Below are positions 44,730-63,581 of a stretch of 64,000 nt of DNA, one piece after another. The translations under genes were made by a program, and so were the position numbers. The notes beneath the pieces were generated by a model. That model saw nothing but the letters and a program-made list of their open reading frames with translations, ran no database searches and was not told where the DNA came from. Position 1 is the first letter of the stretch; the number at the start of each line of letters is the position of its first letter. Source of the stretch: Candidatus Thorarchaeota archaeon (GTDB taxonomy: Archaea; Asgardarchaeota; Thorarchaeia; Thorarchaeales; Thorarchaeaceae); contig CAVSBO010000004.1 in assembly GCA_963726195.1 (NCBI GenBank), forward strand, positions 96,001-160,000, in the 5' to 3' direction.

Positions 44730-45530
44730 CTAGTCTTTGAACCATTGGACTTTATCGTATGCCCCGGGTGCGCGATCCTTGTAACAGGTGATTTGGTTTC
44801 GTACTGAATCGAGGGCGACTGTGTCTCCGCTGTTAGTAAAGACCTGCTCTTCAGAGGTCATCCGTGTAAGCCGCACTCCCGAGGGATCTATCATCTGACT
44901 ATGGCCGAAGTATGTTTTTCCATCGAATCCCCGCCCGACTCTGTTTGCCGCCGCCACATAGAGCTGATTCTCGATTGCTCGGGCAATGAGCAGGCTGTCC
45001 CAATGTGCGCTTCTCGGGTCAGGAAACGCTCCGGGAACAAGAATGAGCTGCGCGCCTTCAAGCGCCATTGTTCTGGTTAGTTCTGGGAAGCGAATGTCGT
45101 AGCAGATATCGACCCCTACTTTGATTCCCTTGGCATCAAACAGCACAACCCGGTCGCCGCCACCGAAGACAGTCTTCTCAGCCTGAAACGGATGCACCTT
45201 CCTATACGTGGCGATTGTCTTTCCCGCCGGAGAAGCTGCTATGAGCGTGTTGTAGTAGCCGCCATCCGCTTTCTCAAGTCCCGAACCAACCACGTACGCC
45301 TTGTGCTCCTTTGCAAGGCCCTCGATGAAGCGCGTCGTAGGTCCGGGAACCCCGGGACCGATTCGAGCATAATCGTCGTATCTGAATCCGACGTCGAACA
45401 GCTCAGGCAGTACAATGAATTGTGCACCGTCTTCTGGTCGCTGTCGCAGCAAGTTCCGCACTACAGAGTAGTTCCTTTCCCTGTCCCCTTCTGCAGTCGA
45501 CATCTGGACCATGGTCACTGAGAATTTCAT
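44730..45530 (-). CDS. Carbon-nitrogen hydrolase (nitrilase/omega-amidase family)
   Basis: LPELF, YRKVH, ICYDIRFPE, ARAIENQ. Confidence 0.92.
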   Translation of the reverse strand: MKFSVTMVQMSTAEGDRERNYSVVRNLLRQRPEDGAQFIVLPELFDVGFRYDDYARIGPGVPGPTTRFIEGLAKEHKAYVVGSGLEKADGGYYNTLIAASPAGKTIATYRKVHPFQAEKTVFGGGDRVVLFDAKGIKVGVDICYDIRFPELTRTMALEGAQLILVPGAFPDPRSAHWDSLLIARAIENQLYVAAANRVGRGFDGKTYFGHSQMIDPSGVRLTRMTSEEQVFTNSGDTVALDSVRNQITCYKDRAPGAYDKVQWFKD

Positions 45531-45704
45531 CCTTGGCCACCCGCATCAATGAAAAGAGGTTCCAGCGCGCACCATGACTGTGCGTCTCTTAAGAATGGTG
45601 ACTCGTCACACCGTTGAATCACGCCACATAGCAAGTTGCTGGGGCGAATACGGATTCCACCTTACCATTATACTTATTTCAAACCTTCAAGCCTTTGCGG
45701 AACT

Positions 45705-47130
45705 ATGAATCAGTACGACATGCTGGTCTTGGGCTCAGGCGCCGGAGCCAATGTCGCGAGTGATGCCTACGAGCAGGGGATGACGGTCGCTATCGTGGAC
45801 AACGATCGGTTTGGTGGAACCTGCCTTAACAGAGGATGTATTCCAACCAAGATTCTGACCTATGTTGCGGACCTGATAGTGGAGATTCGTAATGCCGATA
45901 GAGTGAATCTCAAGGCAAGGGTGGAGGAAGTTGATTTCAAGGCGTTGATGGAGCGCATGCGACACGAGACGTGGGACGAATCGGAAGAGATGGAACGCAG
46001 TTTCGGCAAGGTCAAGGGATACGATTTCTACAAAGGAACAGGGGAATTCATTGCGTCCCTACACTATGGAAGTGAATAATGAGAGAATCAAGGCGCAGCA
46101 TGTCGTAATCGCGTCTGGTGCGCGACCTGCGATTCCGAACATCCCGGGCATTGACAGAGTCGAGTACTTCACGAACAAGACGGTCCTCGAGTTGGACGAG
46201 ATTCCCAAGTCAATGATAATAATTGGCGGAGGATTCATAGCTGTCGAGTTCGGGCACTTCTTTTCTGCAGTAGGTACTGATGTTACGATTCTGCAAAGAG
46301 CTCCTTCGCTTATGGTTCAGGAGGACACCGACATCTCGGAACTGCTACATAGAGAGCTTTCGAAGCGAATGCAGGTTTTGACAAACCACGAGGTTATCGC
46401 CGTGCGCGAGGCTCAAGGATTGAAGAGCGTAACAGCAAGAGAGCGTCAGTCTGGCGCTGAGAGGGAATTCACTGCGGAGACCTTGCTCGTAGCGTCCGGG
46501 AGGAGATCCAATGCTGACCTGTTCAAGCCCGAGAAAACCGGCGTCAAGGTTGACAAAGATGGGTGGGTGATCGTGGACGACTACTTCCGGACAAGCCAGA
46601 AGAATATCTGGGCCTTCGGAGACACGCTTGGTCGCTGGATGTTCAGACACGTCGCTAACCAGCAATCAGGCATTGTGTGGCACAACATCTCCGAGACGAT
46701 CAAGCCTGCTGAGGGACGTGTGCCCAGCCTCGCGAAAATGGACTATCATGCTATCCCTAGAGCTGTATTCACGTATCCGGCGATTGCAACGGTCGGGATG
46801 ACATTGCAGGAAGCGAAGGGATCAGGACGCCCGCTGTTGGTTGGCAGGGCTGACTTCACTTCAGTTGCCAAGGGCATAGCGATGGGAAATCCGCCGGGCT
46901 TTGTCAGAGTCATATGCGACGCTGAAGCAGGAGCCATTCTCGGAGCGACAATCATAGGACCGGAAGCTCCCACACTGATACAGGAGATTACTAATCTGAT
47001 GAACAGCGGCAACGGTGACTTCTATCCTGCCTTTCAGTCAATTCACATCCATCCAGCGCTGTCGGAGGTTGTCCAGCACGCCTTCGGGGCTCTAGCGCCC
47101 ATCGACCATGAACATACTCACCATCACTAG
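45705..47130 (+). CDS. Dihydrolipoyl dehydrogenase-like flavoprotein disulfide reductase, frameshift near 46050
   Basis: GSGAG, GGTCLNRGCIP, GGGFIAVE, HIHPALSE; His-rich tail. Confidence 0.88.
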
Positions 47131-47197: not shown

Positions 47198-47527
47198 ATG
47201 GATGTGCATCCTGTGGTAAACGAAGTCAACACTGAGCCCAAGAAAAGGAAGGACATGCCAAAGACCTCCTACTCGAAACCCGTGATTGGGTCCACAGGGA
47301 AGACAGGTAGTTGGCGAGTATTCGATCCTGTGATAGACCACGACAAGTGTACGCGATGCAGGACCTGTTGGATGGTCTGTCCTGAGGCATGCATAGACCT
47401 CGACGAAGATGACACTCCCCACATCGATTTGGACTATTGCAAAGGTTGTGGAATCTGCGCTGAAGAATGTCCGTCGAAATGCATCTCTATGGTACGGAAA
47501 GGGGAGACCAAGGAAGAACAGCAATAA
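47198..47527 (+). CDS. porD: 2-oxoacid:ferredoxin oxidoreductase delta subunit
   Basis: KTGSWR..PVID..CTRCRTCWMVCPE...YCKGCGICAEECP. Confidence 0.9.
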   Translation: MDVHPVVNEVNTEPKKRKDMPKTSYSKPVIGSTGKTGSWRVFDPVIDHDKCTRCRTCWMVCPEACIDLDEDDTPHIDLDYCKGCGICAEECPSKCISMVRKGETKEEQQ

Positions 47528-47560
47528 GGACAGAGCTGATGAGTGCGAACTACGCCACTG
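47468..47560 (+). repeat. Left copy of the 93-bp porD/porA junction (intact porD end plus dead porA start)
   Basis: Colinear with 58640-58732; 47529-47560 matches 58701-58732 at 30/32 nt. Confidence 0.9.
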
Positions 47561-47566
47561 TGACAG

Positions 47567-47713
47567 CTATGACCGTTCTCGTCTTGTCCACTTCCCGCAT
47601 TTCACGCAGCGGAAATGCACGAACACGGTCGTCTTCCCTTTGTCGACCTCGGTTTCCTCATGCTTCTCTATGAGTCTACCTCCGCAATATGGGCATTCTT
47701 CGCTCAACGTCAT
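47567..47713 (-). CDS. Small Zn-ribbon protein (48 aa)
   Basis: MTLSEECPYCGG...FRCVKCGK. Confidence 0.65.
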   Translation of the reverse strand: MTLSEECPYCGGRLIEKHEETEVDKGKTTVFVHFRCVKCGKWTRRERS

Positions 47714-48610
47714 ATCGACTCTCGAGGGGCCAAATCGGTGATATCGTTCACTCGATGGAGTAATCTCTCTCAGCCATACCTTGACATCGGAACGTATTGA
47801 AGCTTGCACCTTGCTCTTTCACTACGAGAAAATCTCACTAGCTGCAGCCTGCCTGTCGAATCAATCTATGGGCTGGAGCTCGCAGATTGCGCTCTTGCCC
47901 GTAGTCTAGGCCGCCCTCTAGGCTCCGTGGCGGAAGCGCTCAGGCGAGTCTACGGAAAGAGCCGTCACGTTTCCAATGTTCAGATACTTTCGATACCTGT
48001 TGCAGGCCACAGAAATCAAACACACGTACAAGATGATTGGCGATACCGGTGGTTGTCTCTTGCGCGAGTCGCTCGCCAATCGCCATATGAGAATTCCGGG
48101 ATTACATGGACAGAACGGACAGGTTTCTTGCGCTTTTCTGTCCTGTAGCAGAAAGACGCCTCGAACGGGACCAGCCTGCTGTCGCAAGACGATACACGGA
48201 ACACTCATGCTAAACCGTCAAACAGTGGACTGCTCCCGAAGAAACTCGGAAGGAGTGTCGCAGCCTCTCTCGTTTTTCACGCACAGACACAAGAGGCGGT
48301 CTCAGTCCATTTGCTGACCCTTGACAATTCGAATAGCGACATGAGCGGTTGGACGGACCAACTCACGCTAGCGACATCGAACGCTGTCTTCTGACGGCCT
48401 TTGTACGGGTTCAGGAGCACGAGGCTGACGCATGCATCTCCAACTCTCACGGGATAAATCACAAGTTAGCTTATTACTGACTGGGTAATCAAGACTAACA
48501 TCGTCTCGTGATTGGCGCCGGAGTAAGACAGGTGGCGTCTGACAACTGCCAATGCAGCTCTCTGTAATGGTATCGATGTGCCCTACGGCCTTGGAAAGAA
48601 GGTTGGCCAC

Positions 48611-49704
48611 ATGGAAAGTGTGAGATTGATATGGACCCTCATCGAGGGAACCAATGATATGGTTCAGAGTGTAAAACCAGATGGCACGTTCGAGTACGTT
48701 AACAAGTCTTGGCTAAGAGCGCTGGGATACACGGACGATGAGTACCCGGACCTCCATCTTAGCGATGTCATCTATCCTCCGAATCTTAACGAGTATGAGG
48801 AATATGTGGCTAGGGTCATGAATGGCGAGACTCTTAGCGACATTCAGGTAACCTTTGTAAAGAAGGACGGCACTCAAGTTCACGTTGAAGGTAATCTGTA
48901 TCCTCGTTACGAAGGGAATCGGGCGGCAAGCACAATAGGATTCTATCGCGACATCACCGAGCGCCTCCGGGCAGAGACAGCGATTCGTGATGAGCGTGCC
49001 CGCACCCAGTTCTTTGGTGATCTCATGACCCATGATCTCACTAACATTCACCAGGAGATACTGTCGACTTTCGAGCTGCTTGTGCAGACTTCCTCACTTT
49101 CTTCAGAACTGCGCGAATTGGTCCGAGAAGGACTTGTCGAAGTGGAGCGCGCTGCAACCCTTATTGCGAATGTCAAGAAGCTCTCCCAGCTTTATGCAGA
49201 GAAGCCGGAGATTACTCAGGTCGACCCTGCAGACGCTCTTCAGGAAGCTGTAGAGCTACTATCGAAGCCTTCCCGGACAAGCGTCTTCTACTGAAAGCCA
49301 ATCTGTCCCCTGGCCAATGCACTGTGCTTGGGAACCAGTACCTGAAGGATGTGTTCTATAGTCTGCTTCACAACGCGATGAAGTTCGATGAACGAAAGAA
49401 GGTAGAGGTGGACATAGAGGCCGAGCCCATTATGCACACGCCTTTCCTGAAGATTCAGATTAAGGATCATGGGCGAGGGGTCCCTGATGAACATAAGCAA
49501 GATATCTTCGCCAGAATCATTGATAGAAGGGAGAGTATCTTGGGGTTGGGACTGGGCCTTACCTTGGTGAAGAAGATCTTAGAAAGCTATGGCGGTCAGA
49601 TAAGCATCGAAGACAGGGTGGAGGGCGATTACACGAAGGGAGCCAACTTCATTGTGCTGCTCCGATGTGAATTGCCCGGAGAACAACAGGGAGGTACAGT
49701 GTGA
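48611..49704 (+). CDS. PAS-domain sensor histidine kinase, frameshifted at about 49.27-49.32 kb
   Basis: PAS (YVNKSW...RDITER), DLMTHDLTN, NAMKF, DHGRG, GLGLGL. Confidence 0.88.
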
Positions 49705-50066
49705 TGGTAAGCATCTTCATTGTGGACGATGATGAGCTGATACACAAGGTGTTGGAACGCCTGCTAGCCGCTGCAGGTTTTCGCGTATCTGCACATGCCT
49801 TCAATGGGGCCGAGGCTGTCGAGAAGTTCGTTCAGATGAACCCGCGGCCCGACATTATTCTCATGGACCATCGGATGCCTGTGATGAGTGGTGCTGCTGC
49901 GACCCGGGAGATTCTCGCGTTGGACCCGTCTTCCAAAATCCTCTTTGTAAGTGCTGATGAAACTGTGAAAGATGAGGCCATCGCTGCAGGAGCTCTAGAC
50001 TTTCTGACAAAACCGATTCGTAGTGTCGTTCTGTTCGATATGATAAAGAAGTACGCATCCGCCTAG
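49704..50066 (+). CDS. Single-domain response regulator
   Basis: IVDDD, MDHRMP, SAD, KP. Confidence 0.92.
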   Translation: MVSIFIVDDDELIHKVLERLLAAAGFRVSAHAFNGAEAVEKFVQMNPRPDIILMDHRMPVMSGAAATREILALDPSSKILFVSADETVKDEAIAAGALDFLTKPIRSVVLFDMIKKYASA

Positions 50067-50626
50067 TCTCCATGTATCCGATAGGTGCAGGGGTTCTAAT
50101 CAGTCGTTTTAGTGATTACTGTGCGCAACAGGTGGTTTCTCCTGCCAATGCAGACACAATCCTGAGAAGCAAGACGAGATCCTGTCCTACAACCCTCCCC
50201 AAAGGCAACGGTGATTGATTCGACAGCAACAGCGGCAAACGCCCGTGCGGCGCACCACAGCTGCCGCCTCTCATGTGGAGGTAGCTCCTACCAAGACGCT
50301 ATGGCGGGTAGCCTGCTCACAGGTGCCAGCCTAGGAAGTAAGCCACATATACGCTTTCATCGGGGACCGCAGCATATGCACACAATACCATTATCAGGTA
50401 CTCCACGAAATCGTAAGGAAGGGTAGGTGTTTGGCAGTCGCTTCTCAAATAACACCTTGGACTCTTCTCGCGCTTCCAGAATGCAGTATACCAGCCCGAC
50501 TGGCTCCTGGAGGGTGAACACAGGTTGAGATGGTATCGCCATGAAAAAAAGGCTCGCGGGCAAGTCAGTGAGTCCGCAACAGCAAAGCCCTCGGGCGGGC
50601 TGAGGACTTCAGCTCAACCCTTGACA

Positions 50627-51865
50627 ATGGAAACACCCAACCCGACAACAGCCGACTATTGTGCACGGTCTAATGAAAGACTTCTATTCCTTTACCACAG
50701 AGCCTCAGGAATGGCGCCCTATTCCCACACGTTCGTGTCTGGAGGACATGATCCCCAGATGCTATCGGGAATGGTGTCAGCCATGTCAAGCTTCATGAAT
50801 GAAGTCACGGGGGTTCAGGAGTCCAAATGGAAAACAGTCTACGGTTCCAATTCGGTCCTTATCGTACAAGCGGGAGAGTGGATGGCTGGAGTCCTTGAAG
50901 TGATGAGAGAAACAAGCGAAATGCGAAGTAGGCTACGCCGCATCGTAAAGGAATTCGAAGATAGCTTTCCAATGTTCAGGGGCGGAGATGTCTTCGATGG
51001 GACCATCTTTGAACAGTTTGACAGATTTGTTAGACGCGTGTTCGTTGATGACAGGTTGTCAGAGCGCTCGGCTATTCTGAAGGGCTCCGACTGGGGTGAT
51101 ATCCACGGACAATATGCGCATCCCAGCATTAGCTTCAAGGTGGCAAGACTCTTGCATGGCCTCAAGAGCGGACAGTCAATCGCGGAAGTTGCTCAGTCAC
51201 AGGGCTTGCCCCTTGAGGAAGTCAAGAACCTCGTGTCAGAGGCTGTCTGGCAAAACGTAATCCATCTAAAGTACGTCCCAGCAGATGATGATGTTCTGGC
51301 CCTCTCGGAGAGGTCTTCCAGCGTGATCCTGAAGCAGGGAAACCCAATGGGAATCTCCTCTGCGGCTCTGAGAGTGCTCGCACATCTTGATAGTCGCACT
51401 CCTGTTTACTCCCTTATGAGAGGAGTGGGTTCAGAGTCTGTCGACAGAGTGCTGGATGAGCTAGGGAACCTGATTGATGAGGGATACGTTCAAAGGATTC
51501 CACTTGAAAGACGCTTTGTTCTGCTACACGAATGTATCCTCTCTCGATTCATGGCCGCAATCGCCAAAGCTACAGGTCCCGCAAGAGCAAGGAGCTGGTG
51601 GCTAACCGTTTGCAGCAAGGGGACTGACCAGCATCCGTTGCTAGGAAGGATCCATCTCACAAGAGACTTCCGAGCTAGATGTGTGATCGAAGATACCATG
51701 ACTCCCGCTGACTTGGACAACATGTACGACGCCCTTGGCTACCTCATAAACGAGATTGAGAATCAGCCATCGATAGCAAGAGATTTGAACAGAAACCTGC
51801 TCCAAATCGCCAGAGAGCACTGCCGCCGGACATGGGGCTCATACTTGATGGACACAACATTGTAG
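50627..51865 (+). CDS. Longin-like domain plus tandem winged-helix protein
   Basis: FLYHRASGMAPYSHTF..DPQMLSGMVSAMSSFMNE...RLRRIVKEFE, then two HTH-like segments. Confidence 0.7.
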   Translation: METPNPTTADYCARSNERLLFLYHRASGMAPYSHTFVSGGHDPQMLSGMVSAMSSFMNEVTGVQESKWKTVYGSNSVLIVQAGEWMAGVLEVMRETSEMRSRLRRIVKEFEDSFPMFRGGDVFDGTIFEQFDRFVRRVFVDDRLSERSAILKGSDWGDIHGQYAHPSISFKVARLLHGLKSGQSIAEVAQSQGLPLEEVKNLVSEAVWQNVIHLKYVPADDDVLALSERSSSVILKQGNPMGISSAALRVLAHLDSRTPVYSLMRGVGSESVDRVLDELGNLIDEGYVQRIPLERRFVLLHECILSRFMAAIAKATGPARARSWWLTVCSKGTDQHPLLGRIHLTRDFRARCVIEDTMTPADLDNMYDALGYLINEIENQPSIARDLNRNLLQIAREHCRRTWGSYLMDTTL

Positions 51866-52084
51866 CGGCGGAAGTTGAATCGTTCTTGTCGTTCTCCTAC
51901 GGTTTGCTGGTTGGGTCCGCATCCTTGCAAAAGGTGATTGACCATGGGCTGGTCCACGCCGATTGATGATAAGGGTTCAGGCGTTCCCGGGCGGCCTGTC
52001 ACGACAAATCATACATATTCAACCCTGACAAATAGCCCTCTGTCGAACCTAGGCCGGCTATTCAAAACAATGTGCATTATGAAA

Positions 52085-53197
52085 CTAGATTGCCTTCGGC
52101 AGCATTACCTTGAACGTGGCACCTGATCCCTTCTCAGTATCGACTAGCTCGATGGACCCCCCCATTCCATTGACAATTTCTCTAGAGAGATACAGTCCAA
52201 GCCCCCCTCCCGTTGTGGAAGCTCCCTTCTGAAAGAGCTTGTCCCTCAATGATTCTGCTATCCCGGGGCCATTGTCAGAGACAACGACTTGGGCATAGCT
52301 TCCCACGAGTGAAACATGCACCTCGACTGTGGGTGTTGCCCCCGCGTATTTGGCTGCATTCCGCAATAGGTTGTCAAACACGGCTGGCAGAAGCCTGCTT
52401 TCCTCAATCTTCAGGTCTTCAGCTTCTGGGTCAACAATCACGTTGACTTTCATGCCGGTGTTAGCCTCTTCCGCCTGTCTGCAAGCTCCCCTAACAAGCA
52501 ACGCGATACCCCTCCCTAAAGAGTCTGAGGGTTTGCCAAGTGCTTGCAGTAGGCCCATCATTCGCTCTGATACAGCTTCTATTGAGGACAGAGCTTCCCG
52601 AACGCCGCTATCGCTTCTATCGGTAATCATGCGAAGCAAATCTACATTCGATAGGATGACATTCATGTCATTCTTCAAATCATGGCGAAGCAGAGAAGAA
52701 TACAGTTCGAGTTCCCGCTGTAGTTGAACTCCTAGCCTCTTGGCACGTGTCCTTTCGATGAATGCCGATAGCTCAGCAGCGAGGGTATCGATTAGTATTC
52801 GTTCTTCGAATAGAAAGGGCTCCTCATTATGCTTCGGCTTCATCTCCTTGAGATAGGAGACATCCAAGCGCCCCGCTTTTCCCTCAGATGTCACTATGTC
52901 GGACGACAGCATCCAAGGCGTTTCAAGAAAATTCTCCGTCTGCACACACAGGCTTCCGATCACGACTCTAGAACAGGCAATAGATTGGTGTTGAAACCCC
53001 TCTATTATGACATGAACAAACGTGTACAGAGTATCATTTACATTCTTCTCCAAGTCCGAGAGAATCTGCCTGACAGTGAAAAGGCAGACAATCTGGTGGC
53101 CAGCACGCGCAACGGGGGCATCGCTGTTCGTGGTGACCTTTGGCCCAGCAGACTTTGGTTTGTCTCCTCTCTTAGGCGCCAATGCTTGACCCTCCAA
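52085..53197 (-). CDS. Sensor histidine kinase with GAF-like N-terminus
   Basis: LLRHDLKN, NLLRNAAKY, DNGPGI, GGGLGLY. Confidence 0.9.
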   Translation of the reverse strand: MEGQALAPKRGDKPKSAGPKVTTNSDAPVARAGHQIVCLFTVRQILSDLEKNVNDTLYTFVHVIIEGFQHQSIACSRVVIGSLCVQTENFLETPWMLSSDIVTSEGKAGRLDVSYLKEMKPKHNEEPFLFEERILIDTLAAELSAFIERTRAKRLGVQLQRELELYSSLLRHDLKNDMNVILSNVDLLRMITDRSDSGVREALSSIEAVSERMMGLLQALGKPSDSLGRGIALLVRGACRQAEEANTGMKVNVIVDPEAEDLKIEESRLLPAVFDNLLRNAAKYAGATPTVEVHVSLVGSYAQVVVSDNGPGIAESLRDKLFQKGASTTGGGLGLYLSREIVNGMGGSIELVDTEKGSGATFKVMLPKAI

Positions 53198-53846
53198 ATC
53201 CCTTCAGGCAGTTCCCGGTGGGCTCTGTCCCGCTTGATGCCACATCAGATTCACTGTCCTCGTAGTCCACATCCGTCAGAGGAGAGGTCAAGGATTGACG
53301 TACTTCTGCATAAACCCCCTTATAACTTTTCGACTAGGAACTCTGTGCGACTATTTTTTCGAGAAGGGCTGGTCCCGAGTCAGCTGTTCTAGTGTGTCGG
53401 TTAACAAGAGCATTAGTACAGCAATTCGCGATTAGCAGCTAAAGGCCCGTTCAGCGACCCTCAATTCCTTCGAGAGATTGTGATTGCGTGAACTCCAAGT
53501 TGAAAACTACAGGTCTCAGGAAATGAGATGTGTGCCTATCGAACCTGATATGCAGAAGCACTTGGTTTGACCGTAGACGTGTAGCTGTGGCAGCCTCCTC
53601 GGTAGAAGCAAGAAGCTCACCGGAGGCAAGTTGTAGGAGGTCGTGTGAGGCAGGTCGGCACCGGTCGTTTGACAAGACCAAACTAAGGAGGCCCTTCTTG
53701 AGCACCAATCTGTAGCAGATTCGCTTATCTGCATTGTTCCGTGTTTATTCAATTGGGACTCGTGCAATTCGCAGCCAATGCTTGTGGCCGCCGCGATTCT
53801 GTCAAGGGTTGTTGGGTAGGGATGTCTGACGACGGTTGAAGCGAAG

Positions 53847-55970
53847 ATGGACTCGTCCAGCATGGAGAAGCTCGTTAGAAGGAGCAGATTGCTCGATGCT
53901 GCGGGCAGGATTCTTCTTGATTCATTGAAGTGCGATACCTTGCGGGAAGTGGCATCATTGGGCCTTACTGCCATTGAGGATTTGGTCGGGAGCGAATTCG
54001 GATTCGTTGATGAGATAAACGCCCAAGGGACTCTCGATGCAATCGCTCTGGGTGGCATCGGCTGGGAAGCCTGTTCCCGAGAGCCGGAACGGGCAGGAAA
54101 GCAGCTGGCAGGTTTGCCAATAGGAGGCTACTGGAGCAAACCTGTTGTCACAGGAGAGCCGGTGCTGGTAAACAGCCCGAATTCATATCCGGAGGGACTC
54201 GGAATACCTGAAGGGCATCCTCCGATTGAGTGCTATCTCGGCGTGCCGATAAGATATGGAACAAGAATCGTCGGCCTTATAGGACTTGCCAACAAGCCAG
54301 GAGGATTCACACAGTCAGATGTTGAAGACGTGAACGAGTTATCCTTGTGGCTCGCAGACATCATCCTACGAAAGCATTTGGAGGATGGCAAAGAACAGGC
54401 CGTCCGGTACTATGAGGGCTTGTTTTCAAATGCCATAGTCGGCATCGCCCATTGCAGAGTCCTGACTGACGAGGCTGGCAATCCCGTTGACTATGAGTTC
54501 TTGGATGTAAACCACGCGTATGAAGTGCTCGGAGGGCTTGAGAAGGAGAAGATCATTGGGAAGAGGGTCACAGAGGTGCTTCCGGACATAGTGCACGATG
54601 ATTTCGACTGGATTGGCACTTACGGACGCGTCGCTCTCACTGGCGAACCAATGACGTTCGAGGCGCACTCTTCATCGTTGGACCAGTGGTATCTAGCAGC
54701 TGTATATAGCCCGAGGAAGTACGACTTCATTGCCTCTCTTGTGAACATCACTCGTGAACACCTTCTGCAGGCGGCACTGAGAGAAACTGAGACCTTGACC
54801 ACAGTTCTGTTTGAAAATGCACCAATTTCACTCTGGGAAGTGGATCTATCAAGCGTCAGGTCGAAGGTGGCCCAGGTGGAAAGCTCGTGTCAGGTGGACC
54901 TCGGGCGCTATTTGCAGGACCACCCCGGAGCCCTTGCCGGGCTCGTCTCTGACGCGTATGTGCGCAAGGTCAATGGGCGGACGCTGGAGCTTTTTGGCGC
55001 AGAAACCGAGCAGGATTTCCAGTTCCACCTGCCAGAAATCATCACTGACACGAATTTTTTCCTGACAATTGTTTCTGCTCTTGTCGGACCTGAGCGTGGA
55101 ATCACAACTCAAGGAGCCCTCAGGACTCTGCAGGGCAGGAACATCGAGGTCGGAGTCAAGGCAAAGGTTGTTCCGGGCTATGAAGCAACCTTAGGGAAAG
55201 TGATCATTTCTGTGACTGATGTGACAGCCCTGAGACAGGCCGACCAATGCGTGAAGGAGCGTACTGCGCAGCTGGAAAACGCCAACAACGAGATCGAGTC
55301 GTTCTCGTACTCTGTATCACACGATTTGAGGGCCCCGCTCCGAGCTATCGATGGTTTCAGCAGAGAGCTGCTCGAGGGCTATCGCGGTAGTCTGGACGAA
55401 AAGGGAGTCCACTACCTCGAGCGCGTAAGAGTGGCCGCTCAACGTATGGGCGTTATGATTGACGATCTCCTGAAGTTATCTCGGGTCACTCGGTCACAGA
55501 TGAACCGTGAGTGGGTGGACGTGACATCCATGGCCAATGAGATTGCCGAAGAACTTCGCCGCAGTGATGAGAACAGACATGTCGAGTTCGTCATAGCAAA
55601 TGACATTGTCGCAAACGCAGATAAGGAACTCCTCCGTGTTGTGTTGAACAACCTGATAGGAAATGCGTGGAAGTTCTCTGCGAAGTGTCCGCTTGCAAGA
55701 ATCGAAGTGGGAACGCTAAGAGAGGGTCCGAACACTGTGTATTTCGTGCGCGACAATGGTGTGGGCTTTGACATGCAATATGCAGACAAGCTGTTCATTG
55801 CGTTTCAGCGACTCCACACGCAGGAAGAGTTCGAGGGCACAGGGATTGGGCTGGCGACAGTGCGTCGCATCGTCAATCGGCACGGTGGGCGAGTCTGGGC
55901 TGAAAGCACTCCTGAGCAAGGAGCAACATTCTACTTCACAGTACTGACGGAGGAAGCCATGAATGTCTAG
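53847..55970 (+). CDS. GAF-PAS-PAS histidine kinase with bacterial phytochrome-type transmitter
   Basis: PEGHPPI..YLGVP GAF; YSVSHDLRAPLR; NAWKF; FQRLH; GTGIGL. Confidence 0.92.
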   Translation: MDSSSMEKLVRRSRLLDAAGRILLDSLKCDTLREVASLGLTAIEDLVGSEFGFVDEINAQGTLDAIALGGIGWEACSREPERAGKQLAGLPIGGYWSKPVVTGEPVLVNSPNSYPEGLGIPEGHPPIECYLGVPIRYGTRIVGLIGLANKPGGFTQSDVEDVNELSLWLADIILRKHLEDGKEQAVRYYEGLFSNAIVGIAHCRVLTDEAGNPVDYEFLDVNHAYEVLGGLEKEKIIGKRVTEVLPDIVHDDFDWIGTYGRVALTGEPMTFEAHSSSLDQWYLAAVYSPRKYDFIASLVNITREHLLQAALRETETLTTVLFENAPISLWEVDLSSVRSKVAQVESSCQVDLGRYLQDHPGALAGLVSDAYVRKVNGRTLELFGAETEQDFQFHLPEIITDTNFFLTIVSALVGPERGITTQGALRTLQGRNIEVGVKAKVVPGYEATLGKVIISVTDVTALRQADQCVKERTAQLENANNEIESFSYSVSHDLRAPLRAIDGFSRELLEGYRGSLDEKGVHYLERVRVAAQRMGVMIDDLLKLSRVTRSQMNREWVDVTSMANEIAEELRRSDENRHVEFVIANDIVANADKELLRVVLNNLIGNAWKFSAKCPLARIEVGTLREGPNTVYFVRDNGVGFDMQYADKLFIAFQRLHTQEEFEGTGIGLATVRRIVNRHGGRVWAESTPEQGATFYFTVLTEEAMNV

Positions 55971-56391
55971 TCGAAATGGGGACTTACTACTCGTTGAGGA
56001 TAATCCTGATGACGCGGAGCTCGCGATTGATGCCTTAGAGGGGGCGAAATTGCTAAACAGGATAGTGCGCGCTCACGACGGGGAAGAGGCTCTTCGATAT
56101 CTGTTTCAGGCGCCACTACACCCTCTTCCCGTTGTAGTGTTGCTGGACCTGAAAATGCCCAAAGTGAACGGTCTTGACGTACTGAAGCGTATCAGGTCTG
56201 AGAACAGGACAAGGACCCTGCCAGTTGTCATCGTGACCTCCTCCAAGGAGGATCGCGACATTCGTGCGTGTTATGACCTCGGAGTGAACAGCTACATTGT
56301 CAAGCCCGTGGACTTCGAACAGTTCGTATCATGTGTGAAGCAGCTCGGTCTATACTGGGTGGTCCTCAATACGGTACCGCCTGTCTCGTGA
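55963..56391 (+). CDS. Rcp1-type single-domain response regulator
   Basis: LLVEDNPDD, LLDLKMP, TSS, GVNSYIVKPVDF. Confidence 0.93.
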   Translation: MSSRNGDLLLVEDNPDDAELAIDALEGAKLLNRIVRAHDGEEALRYLFQAPLHPLPVVVLLDLKMPKVNGLDVLKRIRSENRTRTLPVVIVTSSKEDRDIRACYDLGVNSYIVKPVDFEQFVSCVKQLGLYWVVLNTVPPVS

Positions 56392-56403
56392 GGTGAGGTT
56401 CGG

Positions 56404-58312
56404 GTGCCAGTCCTTCGAGTACTCATAATAGAGGACTCAGAAGACGATGCAGACTTGATAGTTCTTGAATTAGAGGGAGCGGGGTGGCAGTTAGTCCACA
56501 AGCGCGTAGAAAGCAGTCAACAGATGTTGGCGAGCCTGAGAGAGAACGAATGGGATCTTGTGCTGTCTGACTATTCTATGCCCGGCTTCAGTGGGCTTCA
56601 AGCGCTTGACATCTGGAAGCAACAAGGCTCTGACGGGCCATTCATAATTGTTTCAGGGACGATTGGCGAGGAACAGGCCGTGGAGGCCGTGAAGTCTGGG
56701 GCGCACGACTACGTTCTGAAGAACAATCTCAGGAGGCTTGGTCCAGTTATTGACCGTGCTCTTCGGGATGTAGAAGGCAAGCGTCTGCGACTTGAGGCTG
56801 AGGGATCCTTACGCTCAACCATGGAACTGTTCAGAAAGACTCTCGATAGTCAGAGGGACGCAGTCTTCGTTCTAGACATCAACACTCCTCCAAGAATCCT
56901 AGAAGTCAATTCTCCCGCGACAGGGATTTTTGGCTACTCACGAGAGGAGCTCGTGGGGCAGTCCGTTAGCATTCTTCATGTTGACGAGGCAAGATACAGC
57001 AAGTTTCCGTTCGGTTGTCAGTCGCGATATGTGGGAACAAGGCTATTCTCAGCTTGAATTCAGTATGAAGAAGAAGGATCAAAGTTTCTTTCCGACCGAA
57101 CATGTGGTGACCCCAATTGTGGGCGAGGACGGGGTACAATCTGGATTTGTCAGTGTAGTACGCGATATAACTAGTCGAAAAGATTCTGAGAAGGCTTTGA
57201 GGGAGAGGGATGAGCTCTATCGTCTGACCATCGAGTCGACTGATGATGGCATAGCAGTTGTTGCCCTCGATGGTCACGTTCTTGAAGCGAACTCTCGTTT
57301 CATTCAAATGTGGGCGGTTCCGGAACCTGTACTCCAGAAAGGGGGCAATGAGCTGATCAGTCACATGACCAATAGGCTGGTGGCAGTCGAAGGTCTGACT
57401 TCCGAGGGATGGAGTCCCCTATTACCCGAGGATCTCGGCCCTTCACGTGATATCTTCCACCTGAAGGATGGTCGCATTCTTGAGGTCTATCAGGCACCTG
57501 TTGTGAGGGACGGAACAGCCATAGCGCAGCTCTGGATGTTTCACGATATCACCCAGTTGGAGAGAGCCCGACAATCTGCAGGGCTATACCTGGACCTCAT
57601 GTGTCATGACATCAGGAACAGACTCCAAGTGATTACCATGAATGTTGATCTCATGGGCATGCTCTTTGCGGGCTTGGATGTTTCCTCATATCTTTCTCAG
57701 ATACAGAGCGACGTTACCAGATGTGCAGAGTTGATCGGCAAGGCAAAACAAACTGAACGACTTGAGGAAGTTCCCCTACGATTGATATCGCTGTCCCAAG
57801 CTGTCAGAGAGAGCACAGCCTTGGTCCTTGGTCACTACAGTGATGTTGCAGTGGAGCTGTTTCTGGGGAACTCAGAAGCCTTCATTGAAGCTAACGAGTA
57901 CCTTACGGTGCTCTTGGCACAGCTTATGCAAAACGCTGTCATTCACAACCCGCGTGAGGCTAAGGCCATATGGATACGCCTTGACGAGCATCATGAAGAC
58001 TATGAGTTGTCAGTAGCTGATAACGGATCAGGAATCCCTGACAGTAGGAAGCAAAGCCTGTTTGATAGTAGCAGGAGGTATGGCGGTATCGGACTTCACC
58101 TGGCTCATCACATAATGGACAGATACGGAGGCAGAATTGCTGTCCGGGATCGTGTCGAAGGTGACCCGAGCCAAGGAGCGGATTTCTGGGTTTCCTTTCC
58201 AAAGCCCCATCGACATCAGGTCGACTTGGCCAACCGTATGCCCGGTGAGGGTATCGTGGATTCGTCCGGGACTGTTTCTAAGACTGGTGATTCACAGAGC
58301 ACAATAACATAG
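56404..58312 (+). CDS. REC-PAS-PAS hybrid histidine kinase, frameshift near 57005
   Basis: IIEDSEDD/SDYSMP REC domain; two PAS; LDLMCHDIRN; DNGSGI; GGIGL. Confidence 0.88.
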
Positions 58313-58639
58313 TTCCGATTGTAGGGGGGCTAGATTGCTCCCTCCTAACATGGACCTTCTCTCTGGCAGACAGTGAAAAGGCTCATACGCCGTGTGCTTA
58401 ATGAAACACTCGGCCTAGGATCGGCAGCAACCGCTTACTTACTTGAAACGGCCGTCCAGAACAACAGTATCTGTCGATTGAGACTGGTGACACACAATCG
58501 CACGCTTCGGATTCTGAGGGGTCATCTGGCATCACGTTTCGCCAAAGAGATAAGTCCAAAAGATGTGCAGTCTAGCCGGCTCTCGTTTGCATCCACAGGA
58601 CGGAGGTCACTAGGTACGACTGAGCGTGAGGCTGGGACT

Positions 58640-58732
58640 TGCGCCCCAAAATGCGCCTCAATGGCACGAAGGGGATCCAAGAAGGAGAAACAACCGTGAA
58701 GACAGAGTTGATGAGTGCGAACTACGCCGCTG
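58640..58732 (+). repeat. Right copy of the porD/porA junction (relic porD end plus intact porA start)
   Basis: CAPKCASMARRGSKKEKQP* vs CPSKCISMVRKGETKEEQQ*; GTGA overlap at 58696. Confidence 0.9.
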
Positions 58733-59874
58733 CACATGCGATAGTATCTGCGCGAGTAGAAGTAGTAGCAGCATACCCTATCACTCCCGCAACAACGGTC
58801 CCCGAGGAAGTCGCTCTCCTTAGTGAAGAGGGCCTGTACAAGGGCGAATTCATCCGCGTAGAGTCTGAACACTCTGCAATGTTTGCTTGCATTGGAGCCA
58901 GCTCCACAGGAGCTCGAGCCTTCACTGCGACGTCTTCTCAAGGCTTGCTGCTCATGCATGAGGCACTTCACTGGGCGGCAGCTGCAAGATTGCCAATCGT
59001 CCTAGCGAACGTCAATCGTTCTTTGTCACCGAGTTGGAACATACATGTGACCCATGACGATGCCTATTCACAGAGAGACACTGGTTGGATACAGTTTTAC
59101 ATATCCAGTGTCGATGAGTACTATCACACTATTATCCAAGCATTCAAACTTGCGGAAGACGAGAGAGTCCTGATGCCGGTGATGGTGAATGCCGATGGTT
59201 TTGTGCTGAGCCACACCGTATCCACGTTCGACTATCTTGAACCTGAGGAAGTTGACAAGTTTCTGCCTCCTTACAAGCCTCCCCACTGGGTCATGGACCC
59301 GAGCAACCCGGTGGCGCACGGCAACATAGTCTTTCCTGAATACTACCAAGAGTTCCGCTATGCGATGCATGAAGGCAGTCTGAATGCGTACAAGGTTTAC
59401 GCGGAGGTAGAGAAGGACTACAAGCGGCTGTTTGGCAAGTACTTCGGTGGTCCAATCGACTGCTACAAGTGCGAAGACGCGGATGTGTTGTTTGTCTCAC
59501 TTGGCACTATTGGTGCTGAAGCAAAGGATGCGATTGATCAGCTGAGAGACGAGGGTTACAGAGTTGGAAATGCACGGCTTAGGATGTTTCGCCCGTTCCC
59601 CGTAGCCAGAGCACGAGAGCTCGCAAAGAAAGCAAAGGCGTTTGCCTGTTTCGACAGAGGGCTGTCATACGGGTTTGGTGGTCCAGCAGCAGGCGACCTC
59701 CGCTCCTCCCTCTATGCCACCAAGTACCGTCCCATGATTAAGAGCTATATCGGAGGCTTCGGAGGTAGGGACGTTACAATCACTGATATCAAGGAGGTTA
59801 TCCTTGATACCTACAAGTCGTTGGAGTCTGGGAACCTAGGTCCTGAGGAGACCTGGCATGATTTGATGGAGTGA
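58696..59874 (+). CDS. porA: 2-oxoacid (pyruvate-type):ferredoxin oxidoreductase alpha subunit
   Basis: AAYPITP, VESEHSA, TATSSQGL, RDTGW, DGFVLSH. Confidence 0.92.
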   Translation: MKTELMSANYAAAHAIVSARVEVVAAYPITPATTVPEEVALLSEEGLYKGEFIRVESEHSAMFACIGASSTGARAFTATSSQGLLLMHEALHWAAAARLPIVLANVNRSLSPSWNIHVTHDDAYSQRDTGWIQFYISSVDEYYHTIIQAFKLAEDERVLMPVMVNADGFVLSHTVSTFDYLEPEEVDKFLPPYKPPHWVMDPSNPVAHGNIVFPEYYQEFRYAMHEGSLNAYKVYAEVEKDYKRLFGKYFGGPIDCYKCEDADVLFVSLGTIGAEAKDAIDQLRDEGYRVGNARLRMFRPFPVARARELAKKAKAFACFDRGLSYGFGGPAAGDLRSSLYATKYRPMIKSYIGGFGGRDVTITDIKEVILDTYKSLESGNLGPEETWHDLME

Positions 59875-59879
59875 GAATA

Positions 59880-60786
59880 ATGGTCACCGCGAAGGAAATG
59901 CCGCAACGGGAGTACGTGCTGAAGGGGAATGCTTCGTGTGCAGGATGCCAAGACATGGTAGCACTGAGAACACGCTCTCAAGGCCCTTGAGGGGGACGTC
60001 ATACAGGTTGTGCCTGCCTGTTGTACCAGTGTAGTACAGTCATTGTGGCCCAATGAGTGTTTGGATGTCCCGGTGCTGAACACCGCATTCATGGCCGCTG
60101 GAGCAACCGCCTCGGGCGTGAAGGCGGCTCTCAAAGTAAAGGGGCGTGACTCTACTCAGGTGATGGTGTGGGCAGGAGACGGTGGAACGTTCGACATTGG
60201 TATTCAGGCATTGAGTGGAGCATTCGAACGCAGGACAGACATACTCTATGTCTGTTACAACAACCAAGTCTATAGCAACACAGGTACGCAGCGCTCTGGA
60301 GCTACGCCACTGTACGCCCAGACCAGCACAACTTGGTACGGCAAGACTGAACCCGAAAAACTTCTCGACTTGATAATTGCAGCACACGAACCTGTGTATC
60401 AGGCGACTGCCGACACTGCATATCCACGCGACCTCTATGACAAGTTCAGAAAGGCCCGTGACATTCGAGGACCCAAGTTCATTCACATCTTTGTACCCTG
60501 CCCTCAAGCATGGAACTACCCCGTCGAAAAAGGTGCGGAGATAGGAAAGCTTGCAGTGGAAACCGGTTACTGGATACTCTGGGAGCGCGTGGGTGACAAG
60601 TTCGAACTTAGTCCAATCAGCAAGCGATACCAGGATCCTGCGAAGAGAAAGCCAATTGAGGAATTCCTCGAAATGCAGGGCCGGTTCTCAAGGCTGTTCA
60701 AGCCCACTCGTAACGAAGAGCGATTGGAGAAGTTTCGGGCTTTTGTCCAGCACAGATGGGACGTGACGCTGAAGACGCTTGCATGA
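59880..60786 (+). CDS. porB: 2-oxoacid:ferredoxin oxidoreductase beta subunit, frameshift near 59970
   Basis: GNASCAGC, GDGGTFDIG, YNNQVYSNTG.QRS, PCP. Confidence 0.92.
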
Positions 60787-60789
60787 GTA

Positions 60790-61416
60790 TCAGACACTGC
60801 CCGACTGCCGTGATTGTAGTATTAGATAGATAAGACCGGCCTCGTGTGCAGTAACTATGCGCTCTTCTCGGTCCATGCTTGGCTTCGATTCCGAGGGTAC
60901 AACGTATCGGCCCCTCATGCATTCTTCGGCGATGAGTCTAGAGACCCAAGACAAATCCAGTATGTATTGCCCGAAATCCAGATAGTCCAAGATCTTGAAG
61001 CACGTTTCAAAACTCAGTGCTTCGGCGAACCTCTCTCTGTCCTCCCCCAGTGTCTCCTTGTTCTTCTCTATGATTTGCACTATGGAGTCGAAGACCGGCT
61101 TTAGTTCGTCTGCAAGAGCCGTGTCAAAACCGGCCGCTCTCGCCCTGACCTTGAGCCTTCCTTCAAGAAGATTCAGACTCTCGACATATACCGTCTCTGG
61201 TGAGCGTGCCTGCTTGATAGTCGCCTTCGCCTTGTTTCTCACTGTGAGAAGCTCGGTCTGCAGTGCATCTCCTTTATCCTGTGATTTGGATACACGAGTA
61301 GAAATCTCACGCTTCTTGGTTGTCAGAGAATCTATGAAGCTCGCCAGATTGTCACTTGTTCCCTTTCCTCTTCTGCTCTTGAGCGTGTTTGAGTAGTGAG
61401 CGATTAATTCATCCAA
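60790..61416 (-). CDS. Hypothetical helical/coiled-coil protein
   Basis: 208-aa ORF; start overlaps the stop of the upstream gene. Confidence 0.7.
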   Translation of the reverse strand: MDELIAHYSNTLKSRRGKGTSDNLASFIDSLTTKKREISTRVSKSQDKGDALQTELLTVRNKAKATIKQARSPETVYVESLNLLEGRLKVRARAAGFDTALADELKPVFDSIVQIIEKNKETLGEDRERFAEALSFETCFKILDYLDFGQYILDLSWVSRLIAEECMRGRYVVPSESKPSMDREERIVTAHEAGLIYLILQSRQSGSV

Positions 61417-62326
61417 GAAGATCGAGAACCGTTCTTTGGCCTACGGACGCCGTATCATCTGTCTCTTTTCCTGAGAAGAAAGTGCAGCATCTTGCATCGG
61501 CTGATGTGGTCTCTAACAGGTTGAGGGCGGCTGATACCCTGCTCAGTACTCTCTTGTCGCCTACCATGGGCCAATCGAATGGCCTGTTGTGGGCGTCGCC
61601 TGAGATCATCTGTCGCAGAAGTCTCATGACATGGAATATCACTACGTAAGCCGCAGTGGCTCGTGTTAGCTGCTCTTTGTCTTGTCTGACTAGGCATACA
61701 TGGTCGTATGGCAACGAGGTTGAATCTATCAATATCAAAGAGATTGCGGCAGGGATTAGTCTTGATACTTGGGGGTCTTCGGTATCATACCCGCTCAGAA
61801 CGTTCCTTATGTCGAAATCCTGATAGTTGAGGCCCCTTTCCTTCATCTCAGCTCTAACGGCTGTGACAAACAGGTCCCTTGATTCATTGGATTGGAGCAG
61901 ACTCCTCATCAGAAAATCAATGGATTCCTTCCTGAGCTCATCAGCGCCTGCAGCGGAGCCAATCGTGTTTCGAGGGATTGCCGACAGCCAGATAATGGAC
62001 ACTGCGGCCTTCCTAGACTTTTCGTCCAGAGCTACTTGCGTGTCTGGCCAGTCTCTCGTCGAGGGTTTGAACCCAATCAGTTCGGGAATCTTCATGATCG
62101 ATTCTACGTGAGATTTCTCCGGGATTGCAGTTGACAAGAGGAATCTCTTGCTCTCGCGGAAGGCACGTTCCTCGTCGGGAAGCCGTTCTTGTGTCGTTGT
62201 CTTATGCCAAGATGTTTGCCATCGGGGTATCTCTTCTCTTGCTACTTCATCGATGATCTTTAGCGTCTGTGTGCGTCGTAGGTTGTCGACCAGAGTCTTT
62301 GCCACACATGTGAGATCTCCGCTCAA
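61409..62326 (-). CDS. Hypothetical alpha-helical protein
   Basis: 305-aa ORF in an apparent operon. Confidence 0.7.
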   Translation of the reverse strand: MSGDLTCVAKTLVDNLRRTQTLKIIDEVAREEIPRWQTSWHKTTTQERLPDEERAFRESKRFLLSTAIPEKSHVESIMKIPELIGFKPSTRDWPDTQVALDEKSRKAAVSIIWLSAIPRNTIGSAAGADELRKESIDFLMRSLLQSNESRDLFVTAVRAEMKERGLNYQDFDIRNVLSGYDTEDPQVSRLIPAAISLILIDSTSLPYDHVCLVRQDKEQLTRATAAYVVIFHVMRLLRQMISGDAHNRPFDWPMVGDKRVLSRVSAALNLLETTSADARCCTFFSGKETDDTASVGQRTVLDLLG

Positions 62327-62337
62327 TTGCAGGCCCC

Positions 62338-63541
62338 CTAGTAGATGAGCCCGATGATCTTGTTTCTAGAAGATTCATGGCCGAGTTCGGACAACATGAA
62401 CTCGCTGATTTCTATAATCGCTTCTTCTATGCTAACTTCCCTGTTGACTATTCCAAGACTGGAGAAGGTAAGTTCGGATAGACTCGGTGCTCACATCGAT
62501 ATCCTCGGGGCATTCGAGTCCCGTTTCCGAGTTCAGCTGAAGTATGTTGTCCAGCGTTCTATACTTGGCTTCTATTACTTTGCCGCTTGGGTATTTTCTG
62601 TTCCGTATGTATATCCTGTGCCTAGGCGTGACACCCTCCAGTTCTATGTCACCGATTAATGCTTCAAGACGAATAGGGAATGACTGTTCGAAAAAGGTAG
62701 GCCTGTCTCAGTTCCTCCAGTGGCATTGTCCTGCTGAGGCGGAGTGCAGCATCGATTTCAGCAGCACGCGACAGACTTCGTTGTTGGGTTTGTCGCGACA
62801 TGCTTCCCCATGTGGAGCCTGTTTGCTGGCTTACGATACCTGTGTCGGGCCTCTCTGGCAATGTTGCAGCGGCTGAGGATCGAGAGGGGTTCCTTCTGGT
62901 TCCACTGGTGAGGCCTTCATTGGCATGGAATGTACGCACGCCTTCAGGTCGGAAACTAGTCAAACTCGTCCCAAACATCTCGTTCTGACTGACCTCTATT
63001 AACACGGCATCCACGGAAGTGCGCTCATTCGAGATATAGAACAAGCCAGGCAGGAAAGGCGTAGAGGTTCATCGGCTCTATCTCGAGTTTCATGGATTGA
63101 TCTGGTCTCAGTTGATCGGGACCAGCTAGTTCCGGTCCTAGTTCCCGTTGTGACCCTGATGATTGAATCTGTTGACATTCTGAATCTTCAATGAGAGCCG
63201 GGCCAGGCATGACTTCTGTTTCGGATTCCGCGTCAGGAGCTGGTTGGTTCAAGTTCTATTATGCAGCCGGTATCTTCGGGTGAAAGCCATGGTCCGCCTT
63301 GGAGCCTGTGATATTCTCCGGATGACAGTGGCATCGAGAAGCCGACCCCCCTGAAATACGTCATGTCAGAGATACCAATGAGCCACTCGTCCTCAGGAAG
63401 GACGCTGTCTTGTATCTCCACAAGCTGAAGGGATTGCTTTTCTGATACGTACACTGCGACGACACGGTCTCCGGTTGAGTTCCCCCAACTTTCTCTACAG
63501 CGGGCTGATATATCCGAATCTGTGATGTGTTCTGGCGTCAC
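62338..63541 (-). CDS. Hypothetical protein (about 400 aa) broken by several frameshifts
   Basis: Overlapping ORFs 63233-63670, 63025-63252 and 62664-63044, plus manually read frames to TAG at 62338; start uncertain. Confidence 0.5.
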
Positions 63542-63581
63542 ATCGGAAGATTTATCTGCAAGATTCACAATCGTTAACAAC

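Follow-up and report, generated by a model that had tools for sequence, protein, structure and literature searches.

An 11-kb block between porD and porA in a Thorarchaeota genome is flanked by two copies of the ancestral gene junction

How can a translationally coupled operon for a core metabolic enzyme be broken in two without the loss of either gene at the break? The question is raised by a por locus of a Candidatus Thorarchaeota archaeon (assembly GCA_963726195.1, contig CAVSBO010000004.1, positions 96,001 to 160,000), a stretch of 64,000 nucleotides (nt) that we refer to as the window and in whose coordinates all positions are given. Here porD, which encodes the delta subunit of an enzyme of pyruvate or 2-oxoacid oxidation, lies 11 kb away from porA and porB, which encode the alpha and beta subunits. 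An earlier reading of the letters alone, hereafter the sequence-only reading, had proposed that an insertion split the operon and left both genes intact, and this is borne out by sites in relatives that lack the insert (empty sites), by a duplicated gene junction and by the intact state of porD and porA. We conclude that an 11.07-kb block of native-looking DNA was probably inserted at the porD/porA overlap in one event, by illegitimate recombination with a long target duplication.

Both ends of the block adjoin copies of the same sequence. Positions 47459-47560 (left copy, + strand) and 58631-58732 (right copy, + strand) form a direct repeat without gaps, at an offset of 11172, whose copies have diverged to 69% identity over 102 bp. 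The part of it that had been noticed beforehand (47468-47560 and 58640-58732) has 66/93 identical positions and contains a core (47529-47560 and 58701-58732) identical at 30/32; alignment, a repeat search and genome-wide blastn all bear out this colinearity, and alignment to empty sites moves the left edge about 9 nt further out. The pair is the largest direct repeat between 44 and 64 kb of the window (84 nt at 74% in the repeat search), and the sole significant blastn match of each copy in the whole 2.9-Mb assembly is the other copy (28 nt, 96%, E 1.5e-6). The weaker part of the repeat, corresponding to the porD tail, is real homology: left and right copies are identical at 38/65 positions without gaps, against a background of 25% (binomial P about 1e-8), and at 45/65 if the right copy of a sister strain is used (P about 1e-13). 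Measured against empty-site relatives the duplicated unit is 102 bp long, or 98 bp if the tetranucleotide GCTG, which stands at either end of the target (47459-47462 and 47557-47560), is counted once. The breaks are sharp. As far as 47560 the left copy agrees with the empty site, from which it departs beyond that point, and homology of the right copy to the empty site begins at 58631; upstream of that point identity is at chance (7/39), which led us to reject a larger, decayed duplication of the whole of porD. The repeat search found no terminal inverted repeats at the insert ends.

Each copy joins a live gene end to a dead one, and the translations given for them in the sequence-only reading are correct. 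In the left copy the live end of porD, KCISMVRKGETKEEQQ and its stop codon, is followed by ATA AGG and the remainder of a dead porA start (IRTELMSANYAT). In the right copy a dead porD end, KCASMARRGSKKEKQP and its stop codon, overlaps through its TGA with the GTG start codon of the live porA (VKTELMSANYAA).

The ancestral arrangement can be read from relatives. We compared the genome under study (G000, an assembly of 2.9 Mb, 89% complete) with three other genomes of the same genus (G001-G003) and with more distant loci. In a named collection covering other Thorarchaeota and Bathyarchaeia, two phyla with outgroups included, 73 loci had sufficient upstream sequence and porD abuts porA in 72/72 informative ones, which answers the check on ancestral adjacency set in the earlier reading. 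The exception, CP070658.1 (L110), is a Thorarchaeota metagenome-assembled genome presented as a 'complete chromosome' that has a gap of 100 N right at the porD/porA junction (2400-2500) and no porD in the 2.4 kb upstream. A porA search of 40 related genomes gave a similar picture: porD ends at the porA start in 28/29 ortholog loci, among which 24 genomes of the same family are represented, and the 29th (L042), which opens with porA, lacks an upstream flank. The order 161-aa gene (-), CN-hydrolase (-), porD, porA, porB (aa, amino acids) recurs in six other genera of the family. In the closest empty-site relatives (L168, L169, L170, L178 and two ENA contigs) the order is DUF2299 (-), CN-hydrolase (-), Pyr_redox, porD, porA, porB, and porD and porA overlap by 4 nt. 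In G001, too, porD and porA are adjacent. The remaining genus member G002 is uninformative at the site, its contig C55 starting inside porA and its porD ortholog not being assembled.

The porD gene that now stands alone is the ortholog, not a paralog. Its product is 62-80% identical in aa to the products of porA-adjacent porD genes of relatives, 91-98% identical to those of the six close empty-site contigs, and 91-98% identical to the rest of its 90% protein cluster, which includes several proteins encoded on empty-site contigs. At the nucleotide level the close relatives are about 90% identical in the porA region and 82-94% in the porD flank (for L178, 93.7% on the left side and 90.4% on the right). 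From L168, porD (0.245), porA (0.224) and porB (0.233) have diverged equally at third codon positions, so that the genes on either side of the insert share one history. The same equality led us to discard a recent transfer of porA-porB from a lineage like G002 or L168, an idea suggested by the 90-91% nt identity of porA-porB against about 80-82% for neighbouring and genome-wide DNA. An origin of porD in a paralogous operon, one of the outcomes that the sequence-only reading had named as fatal to its proposal, is contradicted by the cluster identities, by the matched third-position divergence and by the conserved left synteny.

The duplication also has a direction and a relative date. In the porA head, TAC and GCC occur in both copies, as they do in the closest empty-site contig, ERZ27276978, and are missing from L168, L170 and G001; the duplication is therefore recent. 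In the sister-strain contig L087 the right copy reads CISMVRKG..KEEQP before its stop codon, where ISM and KEEQ agree with the live tail as well as with the close empty-site contigs, and not with G001 (IAM, KEAPV). Since the right copy shares states of the host lineage that are missing from G001, it was copied from the host's own target. The insertion postdates the separation from relatives that are about 90-94% identical in nt and predates the divergence of strains that are about 96.5-98% identical. The age that had been assigned to it, 'old', calls for this qualification.

After the event the redundant halves decayed, at very different rates. Counting changes relative to a parsimony ancestor, we found 4/65 in the live porD tail of the left copy, including GGAGG to GGAAG, which is silent in porD, and 3-4/37 in the dead porA head next to it (47524-47560, +), which keeps twelve porA codons. 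The start codon of that dead head went from ATG to ATA by the same change that turned the porD stop from TGA into TAA. These two substitutions, both silent for porD, abolish the Shine-Dalgarno (SD) sequence and the start of the dead porA head. In the right copy the live porA head has a single change in 37 positions (ATG to GTG), and the dead porD tail (58631-58699, +) has 16/65 in L087 and 23/65 in G000, the L087 copy being nearer the live tail; its frame, its stop (TGA overlapping the porA GTG) and its SD sequence (AGGAG) are retained. The rates amount to 25-35% for the dead porD tail and 8-11% for the dead porA head (Fisher P 0.01-0.04). Between G000 and L087 the dead tail differs at 13/65 sites (20%), the spacer in front of it at 29/318 (9%), and porA third positions by 0.08. 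The earlier claim that decay struck each copy only in its dispensable half is accordingly right as to direction, and it passes over how uneven the decay is (16-23/65 in the dead tail against 3-4/37 in the dead head).

Misassembly does not account for the arrangement, because both junctions recur in the contigs of other samples. The left junction is present in the independent short-read contigs L086 (SRR18214549; 46815-48488; 98.3%) and L177 (SRR18214449; 46935-48847; 97.2%), and the right junction in the independent short-read contig L087 (SRR18214449; 57584-60632; 96.5%). The assembly does contain many small errors. About 30 of about 145 compared orthologs (at least 200 aa; compared with G002 and other relatives) are split across frames, on many contigs, among them proteins that match their G002 counterparts at 95-99% identity. 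Most of the apparent pseudogenes of this genome are assembly errors. Within the window, +1 insertions lie at about 46051-46079 (Pyr_redox), at about 57007 (in a gene for a response regulator-PAS-kinase, RR-PAS-kinase) and at 59969 (porB).

The por genes left and right of the insert are sound. Left of it, porD (47198-47527, +) matches TIGR02179 (PorD_KorD) with 106 bits against a cut-off of 60 and has both [4Fe-4S] motifs, CxxCxxCxxxCP; it differs from strain L086 at 1 nt with an identical protein, too few differences for a selection test, and shows no sign of decay since the event. Right of it, porA (58696-59874, +; PF01855, POR_N, and PF17147, PFOR_II) is intact from its GTG start and has been under purifying selection since the event: its 33 nt differences from strain L087, 32 of them at third codon positions, are all synonymous, and the protein is identical. 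The porB gene (59880-60786, +; PF02775, the thiamine pyrophosphate (TPP)-binding family) has an apparent frameshift caused by an extra A at 59969. The gene is unbroken in L087, G002 and G001, and its product measures 301-310 aa in relatives; the frameshift is an assembly error, and we rejected a porB pseudogene in a decaying operon because the extra A is missing from G002 and from the short-read contig L087. The NCBIfam equivalogs PorA/VorA and PorB/VorB are the best matches of the two proteins, all scoring below their cut-offs, so that the scores do not decide between pyruvate and 2-ketoisovalerate as the substrate.

The inserted block itself (47561-58630; 11,070 bp) does not lie between porD and porA in any relative examined. 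Its GC content (0.49-0.54) is like that of the flanks and flat over both borders. At the left edge an 80-aa Zn-ribbon gene (47567-47809, -; weak Zn_ribbon/Lar-like matches) converges with porD and is followed by about 770 nt without a convincing open reading frame (ORF). Next come two ORFs with profile matches to PAS and HATPase_c, probably one kinase gene split by an assembly indel to judge from the genome-wide indel rate, and a response regulator gene (together 48578-50066, +). A 446-aa protein (50525-51865, +) has no family match in Pfam, NCBIfam, PHROGs or PADLOC and only paralogs of 26-28% identity in the genus, and a histidine kinase (HisKA and HATPase_c; 52085-53197, -) likewise has only paralogs there, of 30-43%. 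The right part (53847-58312, +) encodes a GAF-PAS histidine kinase, a response regulator and the RR-PAS-kinase, assembled as four ORFs and co-directional with porA; the RR-PAS-kinase falls into two ORFs through a +1 C near 57007 and is a single 614-aa ORF in G001. This part has a counterpart of 77% nt identity in G001:C10:46354-50807, at the end of contig C10 and at another locus, G001 having its porD and porA on a different contig. Across 31 genomes of the family, the GAF-kinase was met only in this genus.

Every insert gene has a single copy in G000, and for the left 6 kb the genomes G001-G003 offer only paralogs, 26-43% identical, and no ortholog. The insert is native-type DNA and possibly a mosaic. 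Searches with Pfam, NCBIfam, PHROGs, PADLOC and a six-frame PF00589 scan detected no integrase, transposase, phage or defence genes in it, several of its ORFs being without a family; restriction or modification genes were likewise not detected (Pfam, NCBIfam, PADLOC). The sole PF00589 (tyrosine recombinase) match of the genome is on contig C17, outside the insert. No tRNA or non-coding RNA was found at the borders of the insert or inside it. The term 'island', used in the sequence-only reading, is misleading, since this is DNA of native appearance.

Several small observations attach to the Zn-ribbon gene. It is identical between G000 and L086 (0/243 nt different), and the neighbouring 679 nt (47810-48488) differ at 3.7%. 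Its homologs are variably placed: in G002 one follows a topoisomerase IB gene, in G001 one stands immediately before the GAF-kinase cluster, in reversed relative orientation, and G003 has two copies. We considered the gene as part of a mobile element and dropped the idea, because its multi-copy 677-aa neighbour in G002 is a eukaryote-type topoisomerase IB and not a transposase. We also considered, and did not adopt, the idea that the kinase cluster already stood upstream of porD in G001, with the end of contig C10 joined to the start of C57; the contigs have no sequence overlap, and the G000 spacer has no homology to C57.

Separated from porD, porA and porB must be expressed by other means. 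The spacer that separates the right repeat from the last kinase gene (58313-58630, +; 318 nt) and the dead tail together make up the 383 nt before porA (58313-58695), where inspection for an archaeal terminator or promoter revealed no T5 run and no clear TATA box; a sigma-70 promoter scanner was not used, as it is not applicable to archaea. AGGAG (GGAGG in L087) lies 8-12 nt ahead of the porA GTG in the right copy, and the last three insert genes point towards porA. Read-through from the kinase genes and a promoter within 58313-58695 are equally plausible sources of porA/porB transcription, of which the sequence-only reading had named only a promoter inside the block. The reading frame that ends at the porA start (58349-58699; L087:752-1117) is the same as that of the preceding kinase gene and is open for 116-121 codons in both strains, for which the random chance is about 0.5%. 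An ORF of 108-116 codons ending there was rejected as a real gene, having no family match and no codon-position bias between strains (16/13/10 differences by codon position).

With the insertion, the duplication, its polarity and its relative date in hand from these comparisons, a course of events may be proposed. The 11.07-kb block would have entered at the 4 nt where the porD stop and the porA start overlap, by non-site-specific illegitimate recombination, duplicating 98-102 bp of target that spans the porD end and the porA start. Because the duplicated piece spans both, both genes could survive the split: on the left, porD would have retained its own end, and on the right, porA would still have had its ribosome-binding site and start. 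Candidate mechanisms are staggered breaks with fill-in, or a replication template switch via GCTG microhomology. The redundant halves would then have decayed, the left porA start and SD sequence being lost silently and the right porD tail drifting fast while its SD sequence and stop/start were kept. Physically uncoupled from porD, porA-porB would now be transcribed via kinase read-through or from an unmapped promoter in 58313-58695.

Five points weigh against this account. The mechanism itself is unobserved. Published cases of such insertions carry restriction-modification genes, to which their authors link the DNA breakage, and none was detected here. Neither a donor locus nor a second copy of the insert was found in G000, which is 89% complete. 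The left 6 kb lacks an ortholog in the three other genomes of the genus, and the insert may have been built in several steps. Finally, the two dead halves decayed unequally, which is not what one event and subsequent neutral drift would lead one to expect; the imbalance may stem from retuning of the porA initiation region, from gene conversion or constraint acting on the left head, or from a multi-step history.

A multi-step history could have taken the form of a 98-bp tandem duplication, arising by slippage or unequal exchange between the GCTG tetranucleotides, that served as a neutral landing pad for one or more later insertions at the joint. The GCTG at both unit ends is what a microhomology-mediated tandem duplication would leave, the insert looks mosaic, its right 4.5 kb having a counterpart in G001 and its left 6 kb none in G001-G003, and unequal decay of the dead halves is easier to accommodate if there were several steps. 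Yet the duplication without an insert was not found among about 80 loci and 7 close contigs, and the insert would have had to land precisely where the copies meet, flanked by GCTG left and right. On the present data one step and two cannot be separated; we consider the two-step course unlikely.

The single insertion can also be taken further than we would take it. In this extended form, a one-step duplicative insertion based on replication or repair, through a template switch at the GCTG microhomology or staggered breaks some 100 nt apart and with no mobile-element enzyme, rewired porA-porB into a phosphorelay unit, and the excess change in the dead porD tail reflects not drift but adaptive retuning of porA initiation after coupling was lost. 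We put this forward as a speculation that is unlikely to be right.

The sequence-only reading had favoured a Campbell-type insertion, in which one crossover, homologous or site-specific, integrates a circle that carries its own porD/porA junction. Whole flanking genes and an insert bracketed by direct target repeats are its expected product, and the near-identical core of 32 nt might be taken for the crossover segment. The model presupposes a circle with the junction already on it and, usually, a recombinase. We nevertheless judge it very improbable. The locus offers no integrase or other recombinase, no tRNA or att-like element, no phage or plasmid genes and no contrast in composition; the insert genes are of the chromosomal signalling type, and their ortholog block in G001 sits at another chromosomal locus. 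In addition, the right copy derives from the host lineage's own junction, so that a circle would first have had to pick up exactly those 100 bp, which turns the argument back on itself.

That the block is ancestral and was lost in all relatives by repeat recombination, that it is an assembly artefact, or that porD is left over from a decayed paralogous operon is scarcely credible: direct repeats can drive precise deletion and the assembly has many indel errors, but 72/72 loci over two phyla are empty, outgroups included, the repeat copies share ERZ27276978 states missing from L168, L170 and G001, which makes the duplication recent, both junctions are reproduced by independent short-read assemblies, and porD is an ortholog with conserved left synteny.

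The surroundings of the por genes have changed more than once. Upstream of porD lie the CN-hydrolase gene (44730-45530, -; PF00795, E 7.6e-50), the conserved left neighbour of the locus, and a Pyr_redox or dihydrolipoyl-dehydrogenase-like gene (45636-47130, +; Pfam and NCBIfam) that is read here as two ORFs, with a +1 C within their overlap at 46051-46079, and is whole (473-474 aa) in contigs L168, L169 and L170. The Pyr_redox gene stands between CN-hydrolase and porD here and in close relatives (L168, L170, ENA contigs) and is missing there in six other genera of the family; it is therefore an earlier, separate insertion beside the same operon. In G001 (L056 = G001:C57, 190-1491) a 433-aa histidine-kinase-like gene takes the place of CN-hydrolase and Pyr_redox upstream of porD, and it is only 33% identical to the kinase of the insert. 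The por locus has thus gained signalling-gene neighbours independently in two species of the genus. Downstream of porB, genes at 61409-62326, 60790-61416 (-) and 62664-63670 (-) appear fragmented and correspond to single ORFs in G001 (515 aa and 380 aa), probably owing to further assembly indels. Elsewhere in G000, a eukaryote-type topoisomerase IB (Topoisom_I_N, Topoisom_I, Topo_C_assoc) occurs twice, at C14:12860-14911 and C16:64-2116, and also at L065:7716-9749; both G000 copies are at contig ends, which suggests a repeat or strain heterogeneity that broke the assembly.

The locus offers a natural example of a translationally coupled core-enzyme operon that was broken without loss of either gene. 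With empty sites known from about 80 relatives, close relatives with the empty site and two strains with the occupied one, what became of the redundant pieces can be followed nucleotide by nucleotide. The arrangement hints that pyruvate or 2-oxoacid oxidation may now be co-expressed with a phosphorelay cluster. A practical corollary of the many +1 indel errors is that apparent pseudogenes in this assembly are not to be trusted.

Its genes are those of the archaeal porGDAB and vorGDAB operons, porD, porA and porB belonging to the same families (NCBIfam, Pfam), and the ancestral D-A-B order with overlapping stop and start is retained in all relatives. The locus departs from these operons in two respects. 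In this Thorarchaeota family the gamma gene lies outside the locus: PF01558 has no match in the 64-kb window and none at the locus in close relatives, and the genome has seven matches elsewhere, two of them (C18, C7) distant from any alpha gene; orphan PF01558 genes are found on other contigs. In this genome, moreover, delta is 11 kb away from alpha and beta.

Some prophages and integrative elements that integrate by site-specific (Campbell) recombination bring a substitute gene end, such as the 3' end of a tRNA gene or the end of the icd gene in e14 and phage 21. They resemble the present case in the direct repeats of the target around the insert and in the continued function of the interrupted gene. 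They differ from it in that here we found no recombinase and no element-type genes, the composition is native, and the duplicate comes from the host's own lineage.

The closest counterpart is insertion with long target duplication, which is a type of rearrangement reportedly described by Nobusato and co-workers in 2000 (Gene 259:99). The present case shares its defining features: the repeats exceed 30 bp (102 bp, or 98 bp with GCTG counted once), the empty site is single-copy (L168, L169, L170, L178, G001 and 72/72 other loci), and the insert is below 20 kb (11,070 bp) with no mobile genes detected, several ORFs being without identity. In the survey of Furuta, Abe and Kobayashi (2010, Nucleic Acids Research 38:2428; PMC2853133) the repeats measured 46-423 bp and matched a single-copy empty site, often spanning a start or stop codon such that the target gene stayed intact, as the neighbouring genes did here, and the inserts were shorter than 20 kb and had no mobility genes. 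Those cases are bacterial and carry restriction-modification genes, and the authors tie the process to DNA breakage by these systems; no archaeal case survived their screen. The cargo here consists instead of two-component signalling genes. Restriction-modification cargo was a screening filter of that study and not a property of the rearrangement, and we class the present case by its rearrangement and not as a restriction-modification mobile unit. It differs further from the published cases in its Asgard archaeal host, in its target, a translationally coupled junction of core-metabolism genes, and in its greater age, its repeats being 69% identical over 102 bp where published ones are near-identical. 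The porD/porA split is thus a clean but not unprecedented type of rearrangement, one that takes insertion with long target duplication past restriction-modification cargo and, going by the survey in PMC2853133, into the archaea.

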